A stretch of DNA of 64,000 nucleotides from an uncultured Gammaproteobacteria bacterium (GTDB lineage: Bacteria > Patescibacteriota > Patescibacteriia > Patescibacteriales > GWE2-39-37): the NCBI GenBank assembly GCA_964443495.1, contig CAYUCS010000002.1:196021-260020 (forward strand), in the 5' to 3' direction. Under the pieces are notes generated by a model. That model was not told the DNA's origin. It saw nothing but the letters and a program-made list of their open reading frames with translations, and did no database searches. Shown here piece by piece: positions 53,332 to 64,000 of this stretch. Both the position numbers and the translations under genes were made by a program. Each line of letters starts with the position of its first letter. The first letter of the stretch is position 1.

Positions 53332-53469
53332 CTAGCCAGCCAATTTCCTGGCCAACTTTTCAATCCGTTCAAACAAGGCATCGAGCGGCCGCCAGCTATG
53401 CAGCAGGTCGATCAAGCCCCAGACAATAAATATGAGCGCGAGCGGCCCATACATCTTCAAAAGAATCAT
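53332..53469 (-). CDS. 45-aa single-helix membrane peptide co-transcribed with the CA-like gene
   Basis: Below the 60-aa cut-off of the track. ATG at 53469 lies 12 nt after the upstream TAA and is preceded by GGGAGGAGG. Translation: MILLKMYGPLALIFIVWGLIDLLHSWRPLDALFERIEKLARKLAG. TAG at 53334..53332, terminator immediately downstream. Confidence 0.6.
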   Translation of the reverse strand: MILLKMYGPLALIFIVWGLIDLLHSWRPLDALFERIEKLARKLAG

Positions 53470-53481
53470 ACCTCCTCCCGG

Positions 53482-54555
53482 TTATTCGATGACCTTGAAC
53501 ATCCGATCATCAAGATTAGTGACAGTAGTCAGCGGATGCATGTACCCGAGCATGTCGGGGTAATCCTTCATGATCTTCAGTCCGAGCTTGCGATAGCCGA
53601 GAGCCCTCTCCCTGGCACGGTCGAAGGTCAGGCCGTTTTCGTTGCCGAAAGCGGCAGTGGATAAGAGAACAAAACCGTCCTCTTTCTTGATCCGCCCGTC
53701 AGCGATATTGTGCTGGACGACGCCGATCGCCTCGCGTATGGCCTCTTCCGGTTCGTCTGAATACATCCCGACGATCAATGCCAGATTAGGCTCATAGATC
53801 GAATCCGCGCCGCGACCGATGACGATGACCCTTTCCTTGTGGTCTAGGTCGGCTATCGGCCGGTTCGAGCTTCGAACCTCAGCTGTGTGTTCCATGTTCT
53901 TCTGTGCCATGAAGCACAGATCACCGATGGCGCTGCTGGGTTTCTTGGGGAGAATCTTCCTGAACTCAGCCAAGAGAAATCTTTTGAGCTCGCTCTCAGA
54001 ACAGAAGTTACTGATGTCCAGCGCGCCCAAGTCGAGCTTGTCGCCTTTGTCCCCATGAAAGACCAGAGAGTCTTCATCAGTTTCCAGTCCGACTACGATC
54101 GGAATCATCGATTCCGTGTTGTCGCCATAGACGCGCCTGAACTGCTCTTGCAGTCCGAACATGCCAGCGATGGCCGCCTCTTTGTCAAAATTGAAGCCCT
54201 TACAGCCGCGAAACTTGTCTCCCTTTGACCAGTGATAGTTCAGCATGGCCAAACTGCCCTTGCCCTCCTCTTTCAAGTGGTGCATGTAGCAGCGGAAAAC
54301 CGCCTCGTCGAATTTCTCCCACTCCAGATTGAAGCGGGCACCCAGGTTGCGGAAATGCTTGCCGACTCCGACCGGCACCTTGGTGACTTTCGGGATATCG
54401 ACGCGGCTGTCCATGCAGACGACCCACATCTTGAAATACTTTTCTTTGGCCCGGTAAAAGAGCCGGTTAGACCTCGCGGTGGCGCTAGCGAAAAGCTTGG
54501 AACAGCGCCGGTTGATGTTGATTACTTCTTGGACCAGTGTCGGACGATTCAGCAT
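53482..54555 (-). CDS. Carbonic-anhydrase-like protein with a beta-CA CxDxR motif and extended His...Cys spacing (CsoSCA/DabA-like), 357 aa
   Basis: VVCMDSRVD (Cys-x-Asp-x-Arg, nt 54403..54417) is the beta-class CA active-site signature. NYHWSKGDKFRGC supplies a His (54232..54234) 61 residues later and a Cys (54202..54204) 10 residues after that. This resembles the Cys/His/Cys spacing reported for CsoSCA rather than the canonical HxxC. Start placed at ATG 54555, preceded by AGGAGGG; the track start at 54630 has no SD and lies ~25 nt from the predicted transcription start. Confidence 0.5.
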   Translation of the reverse strand: MLNRPTLVQEVININRRCSKLFASATARSNRLFYRAKEKYFKMWVVCMDSRVDIPKVTKVPVGVGKHFRNLGARFNLEWEKFDEAVFRCYMHHLKEEGKGSLAMLNYHWSKGDKFRGCKGFNFDKEAAIAGMFGLQEQFRRVYGDNTESMIPIVVGLETDEDSLVFHGDKGDKLDLGALDISNFCSESELKRFLLAEFRKILPKKPSSAIGDLCFMAQKNMEHTAEVRSSNRPIADLDHKERVIVIGRGADSIYEPNLALIVGMYSDEPEEAIREAIGVVQHNIADGRIKKEDGFVLLSTAAFGNENGLTFDRARERALGYRKLGLKIMKDYPDMLGYMHPLTTVTNLDDRMFKVIE

Positions 54556-54659
54556 GTTTTCCCTCCTGTGGTTTGCTGGTTTTGTGGTTGGGTTGGATTT
54601 ATGTTCTTTTTGAACGTAACGAAATTTCAATGATCATACCACTTTCATGATAATATTTA

Positions 54660-54688
54660 ATATTACCACAAAAATGGCATTCTGTCAA
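54660..54688 (-). promoter_or_regulatory. Promoter of the CA-like operon (TTGACA-17-TAATAT with TGG extension)
   Basis: The minus strand reads TTGACA (54688..54683), a 17-nt spacer ending in TGG, then TAATAT (54665..54660). Confidence 0.7.
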
Positions 54689-54825
54689 TATATTAGCCTC
54701 ATAATTGGCTAATAACTGGCAAAATAAAAATGCAGTACAGACACTGCACAACTTCTAATGCTACTACTCTTATTGGAATAGTCAAGGGTATTTTGGTGGA
54801 TAACTGAATTAATCGTTAAACATAC

Positions 54826-54854
54826 TTGACACATTTTAAAAAGTATGCTATATT
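54826..54854 (+). promoter_or_regulatory. Near-consensus promoter of the 36-aa ORF (TTGACA-17-TATATT with TGC extension)
   Basis: TTGACA at 54826..54831, 17-nt spacer ending in TGC, TATATT at 54849..54854. Confidence 0.7.
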
Positions 54855-54891
54855 ATTAATAGTTGAACAATAAAAACTTGGAGGAACAAAG

Positions 54892-55002
54892 ATGATCTGG
54901 CATTCAATTCAGCAAATGAGTGGATACTTCACCACAATCGGCGCAGCTCTGTTCGTTTTCGGAGTCTATCAATTCCAAGGACTCTTCCTCAAAGAGTATT
55001 AA
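54892..55002 (+). CDS. 36-aa hydrophobic small protein
   Basis: Below the track cut-off. GGAGGA (54880..54885) lies 6 nt upstream of the ATG. Translation: MIWHSIQQMSGYFTTIGAALFVFGVYQFQGLFLKEY. It has its own promoter and terminator and is one of only two plus-strand genes in the window. Confidence 0.55.
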   Translation: MIWHSIQQMSGYFTTIGAALFVFGVYQFQGLFLKEY

Positions 55003-62307: not shown

Positions 62308-62375
62308 ACTGTGCGAGCTTTAAATATAATAAATTTTCTTAATAACCATTCGTGGCAATAGATAAGGTAACTGAT

Positions 62376-62403
62376 ATTGTAATACTCCTATCGAAAAAAT
62401 CAA
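62376..62403 (-). promoter_or_regulatory. Candidate promoter of the Ehr-like operon (TTGATT-16-TACAAT)
   Basis: The minus strand reads TTGATT (62403..62398), 16 nt, TACAAT (62381..62376). It lies between the atpC terminator and the ATG at 62307. Confidence 0.45.
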
Positions 62404-62419
62404 GGCTAATAATAAACAA

Positions 62420-62453
62420 TAAAAATACCACCTTACGAAAAATAAGGTGGTAT
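62420..62453 (-). terminator. Rho-independent terminator downstream of atpC
   Basis: 11-bp stem ataccacctta / taaggtggtat with a 7-nt loop, followed on the minus strand by TTTTTATTG. Confidence 0.85.
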
Positions 62454-62461
62454 CTTGATAC

Positions 62462-62902
62462 CTAATCGATCTTGACGTTGTGACGTGTATGATGTTTTTT
62501 GGCAACCTTGATGCGGGCCAATTCCTTTTCGATAGCTGCTGCGACGCGAGCATATTCCATTTCGCCCATAGTAACCTTCTCTTTCTTAAGCTCTTCGGCG
62601 CGCTGGCGAGCAGCCTCGGCGCGCTGCAAATCGATTTCCGCTGCGGCTTCGGCCGTGTCAGCCAGAACTATCAGTTCGTTATTATTGAATTCGATAAAAC
62701 CCCCGGAAACCGCCATGCTGACCTCATCTTCGCCGTCCTTGAGCATGATCTCGCCCGGCTTCAGCGCGGCGATGTAGGAACGATGGTTAGGCAGGATCGT
62801 CACCTGGCCATCAACCACCGGCAAGGTGGCTTGGCCGACCTGGCTTTCATAAACCGTACGTTCCGGAGTGACTATCTTGAATTTTATAGTTTGGTCGGAC
62901 AT
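62462..62902 (-). CDS. atpC: F-type ATP synthase subunit epsilon
   Basis: 146 aa. KFKIVTPERTVYESQVGQATLPVVDGQVTILPNHRSYIAALKPGEI... plus a helical C-terminal domain. It lies immediately downstream of atpD. Confidence 0.9.
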   Translation of the reverse strand: MSDQTIKFKIVTPERTVYESQVGQATLPVVDGQVTILPNHRSYIAALKPGEIMLKDGEDEVSMAVSGGFIEFNNNELIVLADTAEAAAEIDLQRAEAARQRAEELKKEKVTMGEMEYARVAAAIEKELARIKVAKKHHTRHNVKID

Positions 62903-62910
62903 AAATTATT

Positions 62911-64000
62911 CTATTTCCCTGCTGCTTTCAAAACGTCTTCAATGCCGCCCTTCATGTAGAAGTCCTGCTCCGGCACCTCGTCGAGTTCGCCGTCAAGAAT
63001 CATCTTGAAGCTGCGGATGGTATCAGACAGTTTGACGTATTTTCCAGGAGCGCCAGTGAACTGCTCAGCCACGAAGAATGGCTGCGACAGGTATTTTTGG
63101 ACCTTACGAGCGCGGGCCACTGTCACCTTATCTTCATCGGACAATTCTTCCATGCCTAAAATGGCGATGATATCCTGCAGATCCTTATAGCGCTGCAAGA
63201 CGTTCTGCACGCGGCGAGCGACATCATAGTGCTCTTCGCCGACGATGTTCGGGTCCAAGATGGTCGAGCTCGAATCGAGCGGATCGACAGCCGGATAGAT
63301 ACCCAGCTCGGACAAGCCGCGAGAAAGAACCACGGTCGAATCGAGATGGCCGAAAGTGGTGGCCGGGGCCGGGTCAGTCAAGTCGTCAGCCGGCACATAC
63401 ACGGCCTGCACCGAAGTGATCGAGCCGTCTTTGGTCGAAGTGATGCGCTCCTGCAATTGGCCCATTTCCTCAGCCAAAGTCGGCTGATAGCCCACAGCCG
63501 AAGGGATGCGGCCCAAAAGGGCTGATACCTCGGAACCGGCTTGGGTGAAGCGGAAAATATTATCAACAAATAACAGAACGTCTTTATGCTCCTCGTCGCG
63601 GAAATATTCAGCCATGGTCAAGGCCGACAAAGCGACGCGCTGACGGGCTCCAGGCGGTTCGTTCATCTGGCCGAAGACCAGGGTAGTCTTGTCCAAAACG
63701 CCGGAATCTTTCATTTCGTGGTAAAGGTCATTGCCCTCGCGTGTGCGCTCACCAACGCCGGCAAACACCGAGAAACCGCCGTGCTCCTGCGCGATGTTGC
63801 GGATTAGCTCCTGGATAACCACGGTCTTGCCCACGCCGGCGCCGCCGAAGAGTCCGACTTTGCCGCCTTTGACGAAGGGACAGATAAGATCGATGACTTT
63901 GATGCCGGTCTCGAAGATTTCAGCCTCGGTAGCCTGATCCTTGAATTTCGGTGCTGCGCGATGGATCGGAGATGTCTTTTTAGTCTTTGCAGCCGGCTTG
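62911..64000 (-). CDS. atpD: F-type ATP synthase subunit beta (5' end outside the window)
   Basis: The frame is open to the window edge, with the first full codon at 63999. Contains ...[37 protein letters not shown] (Walker A), [19 protein letters not shown] and [13 protein letters not shown]. The track's start at 63834 is the GTG (Val) codon inside the P-loop. Confidence 0.95.

Follow-up and report, generated by a model that had tools for sequence, protein, structure and literature searches.

Gene layout of the locus

We analyzed a 64,000-nucleotide (nt) stretch of DNA from an uncultured bacterium (contig CAYUCS010000002.1, positions 196,021 to 260,020), hereafter the window, in which genes for two F-ATPase subunits, for a five-subunit hydrogenase-like complex named Ehr, and for a putative carbonic anhydrase (CA) follow one another on the minus strand. 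An earlier note, written from the letters alone, had described this order, including a 36-amino-acid (aa) open reading frame (ORF) on the opposite strand and a 45-aa peptide after the CA, and our gene calls reproduced both the order and the coordinates (Table 1). It had also proposed that the three units form an ion-coupled CO2/bicarbonate system. As detailed below, the CA belongs to the CsoSCA2 family, and its genes lie beside Ehr operons more often than chance allows; the linkage is clearly non-random yet asymmetric and facultative, with CsoSCA2 an occasional neighbor of Ehr and not a constant subunit.

The five Ehr genes are tightly packed, with intergenic gaps of 4, −4, 3, and 4 nt. Longer spacers flank them: 154 nt between atpC and EhrS, and 572 nt between EhrL and the CA gene. 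The hairpin that follows EhrL was absent from the consensus-scan listing and was recognized by direct reading. These promoter and terminator calls, which are consensus matches and not transcript data, agree with the earlier description of separate transcripts. The CA gene starts at the ATG at 54555, which AGGAGG precedes by 6-7 nt; an upstream TTG is not the start.

Table 1. Genes and predicted signals in the window, with the matches or readings on which each call rests
Feature	Position	Strand	Basis and remarks
atpD, F1 beta subunit	62911 to window end (5′ part beyond window)	−	Pfam ATP-synt_ab 2e-62, ATP-synt_VA_C
atpC, F1 epsilon subunit, last atp operon gene	62462-62902	−	Pfam ATP-synt_DE_N 2e-24, ATP-synt_DE; 8 nt after atpD
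Terminator-like hairpin, 15-bp stem, between atpC and EhrS	62422-62456	−	consensus scan
Weak promoter-like site between atpC and EhrS	62376-62403	−	consensus scan
EhrS, NuoB/HycG-like small subunit	61765-62307	−	Pfam Oxidored_q6 4e-24
EhrB, HyfB-like antiporter-like membrane subunit, 665 aa	59763-61760	−	NCBIfam hydrogenase 4 subunit B 1e-132, Pfam Proton_antipo_M
EhrCE, NuoH/HyfC-like + HyfE/NuoK-like membrane fusion, 532 aa	58168-59766	−	Pfam NADHdh 3e-27, Oxidored_q2; residues 325-530 match NCBIfam hydrogenase 4 membrane subunit
EhrF, HyfF-like antiporter-like membrane subunit, 490 aa	56692-58164	−	NCBIfam hydrogenase 4 subunit F 1e-108
EhrL, NuoC+NuoD/HycE-like large subunit fusion, 519 aa	55128-56687	−	best PDB match HycE 7z0s_E 3e-69
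Intrinsic-terminator-like hairpin, perfect 10-bp stem, GAAC loop, T5	55075-55103	−	direct sequence reading; starts ~25 nt past EhrL stop
Terminator-like hairpin of 36-aa ORF	55028-55047	+	consensus scan
36-aa hydrophobic ORF, antisense	54892-55002	+	open reading frame
Promoter-like site of 36-aa ORF, extended −10, 11/12 match	54826-54854	+	consensus scan
Promoter-like site of CA gene, TTGACA-17-TAATAT	54660-54688	−	consensus scan
CsoSCA2-type beta-carbonic anhydrase, 357 aa	53482-54555	−	profile, AlphaFold2 (AF2) model, Foldseek
45-aa ORF	53332-53469	−	12 nt past CA stop
groES	52855-53142	−	Pfam Cpn10 (in L010)
groEL	51053-52735	−	Pfam Cpn60 (in L010)
AI-2E/UPF0118 family transporter	49450-50568	−	
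tRNA-Leu(CAA)	48901-48985	+	
2367-aa ORF	39781-46884	−	Kelch repeats, FN3, six purple-acid-phosphatase-N-type domains
4499-aa ORF	19526-33025	−	
5747-aa ORF	2088-19331	−	

The carbonic anhydrase is a CsoSCA2

The CA-like protein had no Pfam match at default thresholds and only a weak NCBIfam match, to carboxysome shell carbonic anhydrase. Against the Pfam family PF20686 (CsoSCA_cat) it scores 13.5, below the gathering threshold of 21.5 that its homologues pass. A profile built from 16 relatives matched solved CsoSCA structures, hitting both domains of 2fgy (E=9e-12), with CmDgR of the profile aligned to CADGR, YHfSkgd.khrGC to YHFSTSDPTHSGC, and GlETDedaL.lH to GVDTDTDAIRVH. The AF2 model of the protein (pLDDT 88.8, pTM 0.87) had as its best Foldseek matches the CsoSCA entries 8thm, 9g4t, and 2fgy (TM-score 0.70-0.73, E 1e-16 to 1e-14), and ordinary beta-CAs ranked after these three. 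C47, D49, R51, H108, and C118 did not vary among 16 close members or among 95 diverse ones (~29% mean identity), so that the CxDxR...H...C signature of beta-CAs and CsoSCA, comprising the Cys-His-Cys zinc ligands and the Asp-Arg dyad, is present. The model also predicts the CsoSCA arrangement of a catalytic domain and a duplicated, defunct domain. From the conserved catalytic residues and the modeled fold, we predict that the protein has carbonic anhydrase activity.

The protein differs from carboxysomal CsoSCA in its N-terminus, which has only ~40 residues (helices 6-23 and 25-37), and no cso or cbb genes are present in the window, where the CA is surrounded by Ehr, groESL, and atp genes. A length of ~350 aa, a two-helix N-terminus of ~40 aa, a complete active site, and a non-carboxysomal locus are the marks of CsoSCA2, a compact family named in 2022 from several CPR (candidate phyla radiation) phyla, Nitrospira, and many proteobacteria, with an intact active site and described there as unstudied and unassayed (PMC9164163). 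Its relatives are labeled in RefSeq as 'carboxysome shell carbonic anhydrase domain-containing protein'. The earlier note was thus right to suspect a CA, and profile, model, Foldseek matches, and invariant residues together place it in CsoSCA2; its description of the protein as divergent gives way to membership in this published family.

Hydrophobicity gave no transmembrane (TM) segment in the window CsoSCA2, whose maximum hydropathy over 19 residues (KD19) is 0.95 (family median 1.11; 2 of 95 members above 1.6), and the translation has no signal-peptide-like N-terminus. Because it has neither feature, we consider the protein to be soluble and cytoplasmic.

An exhaustive profile search yielded 593 CsoSCA2 representatives clustered at 50% identity, and relatives are encoded in 491 species genomes; the tiny family of 16 relatives returned by a word-indexed search was a sensitivity artifact. 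We rejected a DabA or Cup identity for the protein, as neither it nor its homologues match PF10070, for which the genuine DabA genes of other loci score 1e-227. Fusions of CsoSCA2 to Ehr or SulP domains were also rejected, since longer members (P0029, P0054, P0099, P0150, and others; P numbers denote family members) show only CsoSCA_cat. In four further members of 375-403 aa (P0085, P0086, P0119, and P0120), the profile's N-terminal half aligns, over two stretches, with the protein's C-terminal half, and CsoSCA_cat falls at residues ~240-370. By their sequences, these look like domain-order (circularly permuted) variants.

The 45-aa ORF that follows the CA gene encodes a single hydrophobic helix and then a charged amphipathic tail. 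Related loci have small single-TM ORFs at the corresponding place (46 aa in L012/L013, 35 aa in L014; L numbers denote the loci we compared), and in the window clade a small TM peptide lies 10-12 nt past CsoSCA2; none is present in L001. The sequences of these peptides are not conserved: for both the 45-aa peptide and the 36-aa ORF, sequence conservation ends at the same strain (L010, an identical sequence from another sample), and what recurs in the peptide is only its placement and its hydrophobic character. It is possible that the 45-aa peptide is a membrane tether for CsoSCA2. For the 36-aa ORF, tblastn gave only weak matches beyond L010, all of them elsewhere in other loci, with no match in the interval from EhrL to CsoSCA2. 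It is uncertain whether this ORF is a real gene; the locus could give rise to a small RNA or to a small membrane protein.

The Ehr complex has lost its cofactor ligands and kept its ion-path residues

We aligned EhrL with the hydrogenase large subunit HycE (7z0s). RvCGiC in HycE is RlSGdM in EhrL, and DPCYSC is NLSYSG, so that all four NiFe cysteines are replaced and EhrL lacks both CxxC motifs of a group 4 [NiFe]-hydrogenase. These substitutions are common to all Ehr relatives examined, and the tail motif NLSYSG.D is shared by ~66 Cys-less relatives, whereas true hydrogenases recovered in the same EhrL search retain ELCY.C.DR. In EhrS, STNAEE, GDGAC, and GDPP stand where Cys-retaining proteobacterial homologues have SCNGCE, GDCGC, and GCPP, and at least three of the four [4Fe-4S] cysteines are lost. 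The earlier claim of a cofactor-less Ehr thus holds. Ehr is defined by subunits like those of group 4 hydrogenases (small, large, NuoH-like, and antiporter-like) together with the loss of the NiFe cysteines (PMC7304191, PMC6349859), a definition that the window complex fits. The window complex is not a respiratory complex I: at least three of the four N2 cysteines are gone in EhrS, and a domain scan of the window proteins found no NuoE, NuoF, NuoG, NuoI, or HycF-type homologue with the operon.

Ion-path residues were retained. Aligned to MbhH (6cfw_H), EhrF keeps the Glu of TM helix 5 (TM5), the Lys of TM7, the His/Lys of TM8, and an acidic TM12 residue, and thus the MrpA/D-like set (TM5 Glu, TM7 Lys, TM12 Lys/Glu); the EhrB translation shows a TM5 Glu (WEVMS), a TM7 Lys (GSKAG), and H..K motifs. 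This likeness applies to the antiporter-like subunits and not to Ehr as a whole, for which we claim no Mrp-type membership, as Mrp B, C, E, F, and G subunits were not looked for. Because the NiFe and Fe-S ligands are gone while the ion-pathway residues are retained, the window Ehr, whose peripheral arm can hold neither NiFe nor the proximal Fe-S cluster, looks redox-dead yet capable of ion translocation.

In all Ehr large subunits examined, conserved polar residues (R-x-S-G-D and N-L-S-Y-[ST]-G-x-D) take the place of the lost NiFe cysteines, and EPGHFR, a proton-path motif of hydrogenase type, persists. The pocket that once formed the active site is under constraint and may bind something else.

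A monophyletic, Cys-less Ehr clade of CPR bacteria, probably unable to interact with H2, was described in 2020 (BMC Biol, PMC7304191). Across three other papers (PMC10284858, PMC10432482, and PMC6349859), the function of Ehr is given as unknown (PMC10284858 and PMC10432482) or a formate-dehydrogenase partner is speculated upon. The Ehr passages searched mention neither the loss of small-subunit Fe-S ligands nor the atpC-Ehr gene order.

CsoSCA2 genes recur beside Ehr operons

We compared 80 CsoSCA2 loci, the best tblastn matches among the 491 species genomes, calling genes by simple ORF rules and tblastn; gap sizes are approximate. With the window proteins as tblastn queries, an Ehr operon, complete or truncated by the contig, lay within 10 kb of CsoSCA2 in 13 of the 80, in Thiobacillus, Sulfuricella, Sulfuricaulis, Rhodocyclaceae, and other beta- and gammaproteobacteria. 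Under a generous null, in which each genome was given one randomly placed Ehr operon, ~0.9 such loci were expected (P ~1e-11); collapsing the 13 to 6 independent groups gave P ~4e-4. Ehr-CsoSCA2 adjacency is above chance. These frequencies argue against the view that no functional link exists, with the CPR order atp, Ehr, CsoSCA2, groESL simply inherited as housekeeping order in small genomes that seldom rearrange and the proteobacterial genes sharing a variable carbon-fixation/transport island, a view that we consider improbable.

The operons linked to the CA in proteobacteria are Ehr operons, as their large subunits read R[VI]SGD[STC] and NLSY[ST]G.D; their small subunits keep all four cysteines, in contrast to the window, where the small-subunit Fe-S ligands are lost. 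Since these large subunits lack the NiFe cysteines, we rejected the reading of the operons, which are Hyf-like, as formate-hydrogenlyase-type hydrogenases in which the CA would serve formate/CO2 chemistry.

The 13 loci differ in arrangement. In L027 and L033, the order SulP-EhrB-CE-F-L-S is followed, after an estimated 148-301 nt, by a co-directional CsoSCA2 gene. CsoSCA2 lies 76 nt past EhrS in L038 and L052, where no SulP was detected and the contig or operon end is too near to judge. A SulP-headed Ehr operon converges on CsoSCA2, at 6-52 nt, in L044, L063, L082, and L086; the junction is likewise convergent in L072 and L083, whose contigs stop before the SulP position. The Ehr operon is 410-2387 nt from CsoSCA2 in L037, L045, and L047. 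SulP is the first Ehr-operon gene, with gaps of 12-52 nt, in at least four loci (L027, L033, L044, and L063); in L047, L082, and L086, where gene boundaries are rough, the SulP-Ehr gap was estimated at 29-303 nt. On neighbor-joining trees made with BLOSUM distances, which are rough, the Ehr-linked CsoSCA2 proteins fall in at least six separate clades, with at least four gene orders, and the CA-linked operons fall in three Ehr clades of the EhrL tree. The survival of adjacency through co-directional, convergent, and SulP-interposed rearrangements and in three separate Ehr clades, together with operon-tight junctions (SulP-EhrB as short as 12 nt, atpC-EhrS 10 nt, and a 4-nt atpC/CsoSCA2 overlap), also speaks against an absence of any functional link. 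Pure hitch-hiking does not easily account for such recurrence through rearrangements and in several phyla.

Elsewhere, CsoSCA2 is again found in inorganic-carbon settings, beside SulP (~21 loci), DabAB (12 loci), or CbbQ/CbbO with LysR. In Nitrospira-type loci, SulP is directly upstream of CsoSCA2, and NtrC and histidine kinase genes follow. Seven loci of Nitrospira or Nitrospirota (L020, L021, L026, L031, L035, L036, and L064) share the block SulP, CsoSCA2, NtrC-type regulator, histidine kinase, NtrC-type regulator; this conserved block suggests that the SulP/CsoSCA2 pair of these bacteria is under dedicated two-component control.

In L084 (11010-20396), genes for a NuoM-like protein, DabA (1125 aa), a short NuoL-like protein (DabB), and two further NuoM-like proteins converge on CsoSCA2 at a distance of 14 nt. 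Such expanded DAB-type operons also adjoin CsoSCA2 in L015, L034, L070, L091, L074, L078, and L051, from Thiodiazotropha symbionts and relatives. A free cytosolic CA would be expected to short-circuit an adjoining bicarbonate-accumulating pump; regulation or localization must therefore matter. A further anion/CO2 context is found at the P0010 locus (L006/L007), where CsoSCA2 lies directly past genes for a CLC chloride-channel homologue and a major facilitator superfamily transporter and adjoins NuoF-like and molybdopterin formate-dehydrogenase-type genes.

CsoSCA2 is missing beside most Ehr operons

We also approached the linkage from the Ehr side. A metagenome scan with an EhrL alignment yielded 80 loci, ~66 with Cys-less Ehr and 13 with true hydrogenases. 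CsoSCA2 lay beside only 2 of the ~66 (L098 and L102), both metagenome contigs with the order Ehr-SulP-CsoSCA2, whose CsoSCA2 groups with Nitrospira sequences. Searching with the EhrL of L086 for the proteobacterial clade, we took four diverse long-contig hits; CsoSCA2 was present in none and SulP lay upstream in one. A universal Ehr partner was rejected, as clustering the neighbors of the 80 Ehr loci revealed no recurrent family beyond the Ehr subunits. Since CsoSCA2 is absent beside most Ehr operons, the link is facultative. The earlier expectation that synteny between the CA and Cys-less Ehr would extend beyond this genome was therefore borne out from the CA side, where it holds in CPR-type loci down to 37% CA identity, in proteobacteria, and in L098 and L102; from the Ehr side, few operons had a CsoSCA2 neighbor.

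These counts bear on the docked arrangement that the earlier note had in mind. There, CsoSCA2, perhaps through the 45-aa peptide, would sit on the Ehr membrane arm and form an energy-coupled, vectorial CA: protons would flow through the antiporter-like subunits, down a gradient made in CPR bacteria by the ATPase, and push CO2 hydration off equilibrium, and bicarbonate would accumulate, by analogy with DabAB or with NDH-1 and CupA/B. The precedents are real, as DAB2 and DAB1 are beta-CA-like, proton-motive-force-coupled, and bound to NuoL-like subunits (PMC13144422; bioRxiv 10.64898/2026.05.01.722082). A beta-CA-fold protein beside complex-I-type antiporter-like subunits recurs in several phyla and gene orders. 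In Thiodiazotropha, 14 nt separate CsoSCA2 from an expanded DabAB/NuoM-like operon. The ion-translocation residues of Ehr are retained, the peripheral arm of the CPR Ehr is free for another role because no redox function is left to it, and the small TM peptide of the window clade follows CsoSCA2 closely. Against docking, CsoSCA2 is out of reach in ~64 of 66 Cys-less Ehr loci, in all four loci of the unbiased proteobacterial (clade-A) sample, and in 2 of 6 CPR-clade loci, and Ehr is missing from the vicinity of many CsoSCA2 genes. CsoSCA2 has no membrane-inserting helix; DabA, by contrast, achieves coupling by means of helices that wedge into DabB. The CsoSCA2 proteins linked to Ehr are spread over more than one clade and have no special insertion in common, the peptide is neither conserved in sequence nor present in L001, and the transcription units predicted in the window are separate. 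On balance, we regard docking as unlikely. Counting against an obligate holoenzyme are the many Ehr operons without CsoSCA2, the lack of a DabA-like membrane-inserting segment, and the units' own terminators and promoters. Of the proposed ion-coupled CO2/bicarbonate system, the synteny stands, while docking of the CA on antiporter subunits finds no support beyond it.

ATP synthase genes in CPR-type loci

The order atpD-atpC-Ehr-CsoSCA2 is kept in loci whose CA is 55-59% (L012/L013 and L014) or 37% (L001-L003) identical to that of the window, and is not kept in three other relative lineages (L004, L006/L007, and L008). The atpD of related loci is 81-93% identical to that of the window. All three units occur together in the window, L001, L012/L013, and L014; in L001, the atpC-EhrS gap is 10 nt and the EhrL-CsoSCA2 gap 118 nt. 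The Ehr operon follows atpC in all six informative CPR-clade loci, and CsoSCA2 is absent from two of these. L095, L096, and L104 have atp and Ehr without the CA. The first two are the closest CPR-type loci (62-65% EhrL identity) and show atpD-atpC-Ehr with no CsoSCA2 within 10 kb, leuS following Ehr in L095; L104 belongs to a different Ehr clade, and its atpC-EhrS gap is 31 nt. Conversely, atpC and CsoSCA2 adjoin without Ehr in L042 (Parcubacteria, 85 nt) and L017, with a 4-nt overlap. The title of L017 names Gammaproteobacteria, a taxonomy that is doubtful because its AtpD and CsoSCA2 group with CPR sequences. The linkage to ATP synthase that the earlier note drew from one genome thus extends to other CPR-type loci, in some with operon-like spacing.

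These junctions also fit a different division of labor, in which the ATP synthase-Ehr pairing is primary in CPR bacteria. Ehr would then serve the F-ATPase in an accessory role, as its regulator or as an ion converter (exchanging, for example, H+ for another cation), the pairing of ATP synthase with CsoSCA2 would be independent, and there would be no direct cooperation between Ehr and CsoSCA2; in proteobacteria, Ehr would energize or condition SulP, and CsoSCA2 would process the transported bicarbonate. The atp-Ehr order in six of six CPR-clade loci and in L104, with gaps down to 10-31 nt, the two atp-CsoSCA2 loci without Ehr, and the operonic placement of SulP with Ehr, where CsoSCA2 is usually a separate and often convergent gene, all accord with this. 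It leaves unexplained why CsoSCA2 lies beside Ehr without nearby SulP in L037 and L045, which have long flanks; L038, L052, and L083 are also SulP-untagged, but there the contig or operon end is too close to judge. Genomic data alone hardly separate this division of labor from the loose neighborhood favored below, and we hold it to be decidedly improbable.

The c-subunits of the atp operons in L017 and L042 read E-A-I, with no upstream Gln. Work on the Ilyobacter tartaricus c-ring reportedly assigned sodium coupling to the motif E-S/T-T. The sequences suggest that the ATPases of L017 and L042 are proton-coupled. Two further observations concern these loci: L014 has a 421-aa ORF with no Pfam hit between atpC and EhrS (1102-2367), and in L001-L003, conjugation or type IV secretion system-like genes (PrgI, TraC-like, and TraG P-loop) lie a few kb downstream of CsoSCA2, past four ORFs with no Pfam match.

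A proposed loose neighborhood for proton and inorganic-carbon handling

CPR bacteria have no respiratory chains. The CPR Ehr cannot be a redox pump and is therefore most likely a gradient-driven ion translocator or converter tied to ATP synthase. Tentatively, and with less than even confidence, we favor a reading in which atp, Ehr, and CsoSCA2 form a loose, facultative neighborhood that handles protons and inorganic carbon at the cytoplasmic membrane. CsoSCA2 would act as a reversible beta-CA that rapidly interconverts CO2 with HCO3- and H+ at the inner membrane face, supplying or removing protons and bicarbonate for the adjoining proton-translocating machines. In CPR bacteria these would be the F-ATPase, probably run as a pump, and the gradient-driven Ehr ion translocator; in proteobacteria, the SulP anion transporter encoded by the first gene of the Ehr operon. 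A single-helix peptide could hold CsoSCA2 at the membrane. The analysis shows the identities of the genes, the loss of cofactor ligands, the intact CA site, and the recurrence of each pairwise linkage (atp-Ehr, atp-CsoSCA2, Ehr-CsoSCA2, Ehr-SulP); we infer that the units share a physiological task, in which direction the CA works, any tethering by the peptide, and the ion specificity.

Several points weigh against this neighborhood. All linkage evidence consists of gene neighborhood, and the 80 CsoSCA2 loci were the best matches and were not drawn at random. It was by way of the CA gene that the CA-linked Ehr clade of proteobacteria came to light, and an unbiased sample of this clade gave none in four. 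In the window, predicted terminators, promoters, and an antisense ORF separate the atp, Ehr, and CsoSCA2 units. The order CsoSCA2-groES is also conserved in L012-L014 and in L016 (Falkowbacteria), which has neither atp nor Ehr nearby; because CsoSCA2-groESL is conserved in this way, part of the CPR synteny may be housekeeping order. Finally, the CPR adjacency falls in one clade and could be a by-product of the insertion of Ehr between atpC and an atp-linked CsoSCA2. If so, the CPR adjacency is weak when taken alone, and the independent proteobacterial data carry the link. Some of these points equally favor the absence of any functional link, namely the signals between units and the confinement of CPR Ehr-CsoSCA2 adjacency to a single CsoSCA2 clade, to which may be added the unrelated housekeeping neighbors (groESL, parAB, and leuS in L095) and the solitary state of most Ehr operons, for which the 80 loci revealed no recurrent partner.

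A bolder reading is that Ehr complexes are redox-independent, ion-gradient-coupled inorganic-carbon engines, with SulP-Ehr-CsoSCA2 in sulfur and iron oxidizers and an ATPase-powered atp-Ehr-CsoSCA2 in CPR bacteria forming a third class of energy-coupled CO2/bicarbonate systems beside NDH-1/Cup and DabAB. We think this quite unlikely.

The linkage of Ehr to CsoSCA2, and what it indicates about Ehr function, appear to be new. In full-text literature, mostly excluding subscription journals (such as that of the original 2013 Ehr paper), we found no link of Ehr to carbonic anhydrase, CsoSCA2, SulP, or inorganic carbon, and the CsoSCA2 paper did not analyze neighborhoods with Ehr, SulP, DabAB, or atp (PMC9164163). 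The earlier note had called the arrangement undescribed, which is apt for the linkage and not for its parts, as CsoSCA2 (PMC9164163) and the CPR Ehr clade (PMC7304191) were already published. The linkage joins two widespread orphans, Ehr, found from CPR bacteria to Nitrospira, Geobacter, and ammonia-oxidizing archaea, and CsoSCA2, found in at least 491 species genomes. Their recurrent association with each other, with SulP, and in CPR bacteria with the atp operon is a testable functional lead toward proton, ion, and inorganic-carbon handling. Culturable genera are open to such tests, since metagenome-assembled genomes of Thiobacillus and Sulfuricella carry the SulP-Ehr/CsoSCA2 cluster. For CPR bacteria, the linkage is relevant to the question of how the membrane gradient is managed by the F-ATPase and a complex-I relative that lacks cofactors. 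If docking were true, which would be the more interesting outcome, it would define a new class of energy-coupled CO2 uptake machinery relevant to carbon-fixation engineering.

Other features of the window

Downstream of groEL lies a gene for an AI-2E/UPF0118 family transporter, an order repeated in L010 and in L016 (Falkowbacteria). One member of this family is reported to be an Na+(Li+)/H+ antiporter (PMC7221264), and the transporter could be relevant to ion homeostasis. A tRNA-Leu(CAA) gene was the sole RNA gene found in the window. Almost half of the window is taken up by two giant adjacent ORFs of 5747 and 4499 aa, in which no Pfam domain was detected at E<=1e-5. The 2367-aa ORF overlaps a GC-rich (0.58-0.60), strongly GC-skewed stretch at 40-44 kb, and its product is probably a repetitive surface protein.

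Comparison with known systems

The window CA shares with the CsoSCA2 proteins described in 2022 (Front Microbiol, PMC9164163) a length of ~350 aa, active and defunct beta-CA domains, and all active-site residues; we see no essential difference, and it is a member of that family. The window Ehr likewise resembles the CPR Ehr (PMC7304191) in its group-4-hydrogenase-like subunit set, its lost NiFe cysteines, and its occurrence in a probable CPR genome. We deduce this probable CPR origin from CPR-labeled relatives and from the Ehr clade published for that group.

CA-family proteins are found with a complex-I-type machine in plant and protist mitochondria, whose complex I carries gamma-CA subunits (PMC2900272). 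These belong to another CA class, are structural, and sit in a redox-active complex with which their association has been shown biochemically, whereas the window linkage is known from genes alone.

Gene pairs and fusions of SulP (SLC26) transporters with carbonic anhydrases were reportedly described by Felce and Saier in 2004 as putative bicarbonate transporters. The likeness is evident in Nitrospira-type loci, where CsoSCA2 is directly downstream of SulP, and in the many CA-linked Ehr operons that SulP heads; the window itself contains no SulP gene. The classic pairs have a canonical short beta-CA and not CsoSCA2.

The cyanobacterial NDH-1MS and NDH-1MS′ complexes (NDH-1 3/4) carry a CO2-hydrating protein, CupA or CupB, on a complex-I-type arm and make hydration directional (PMC6981117; PMC12435202). 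NDH-1/Cup is cofactor-bearing and driven by redox turnover, whereas the window Ehr has no redox centers, and Cup proteins have an unusual Zn site and are not beta-CA homologues.

DAB systems (DabA/DabB, DabC; PMC13144422; bioRxiv 10.64898/2026.05.01.722082) are alike in combining a beta-CA fold with NuoL/M-like proton-translocating subunits in an inorganic-carbon context. DabA is a PF10070 protein of 800-1100 aa with helices inserted in DabB; it shows no activity once uncoupled and is invariably paired with DabB. CsoSCA2, by comparison, is a soluble protein of 357 aa with no PF10070 match that lies only sometimes beside Ehr, and Ehr has NuoH-, NuoB-, and NuoCD-like subunits beyond those of DAB. 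The window system thus departs from DAB in having no DabA-family (PF10070) CA subunit, no helices into the partner, and no obligate co-occurrence (13 of 80, 2 of ~66, and 0 of 4). A separate 45-aa peptide could stand in place of the inserted helices of DabA.

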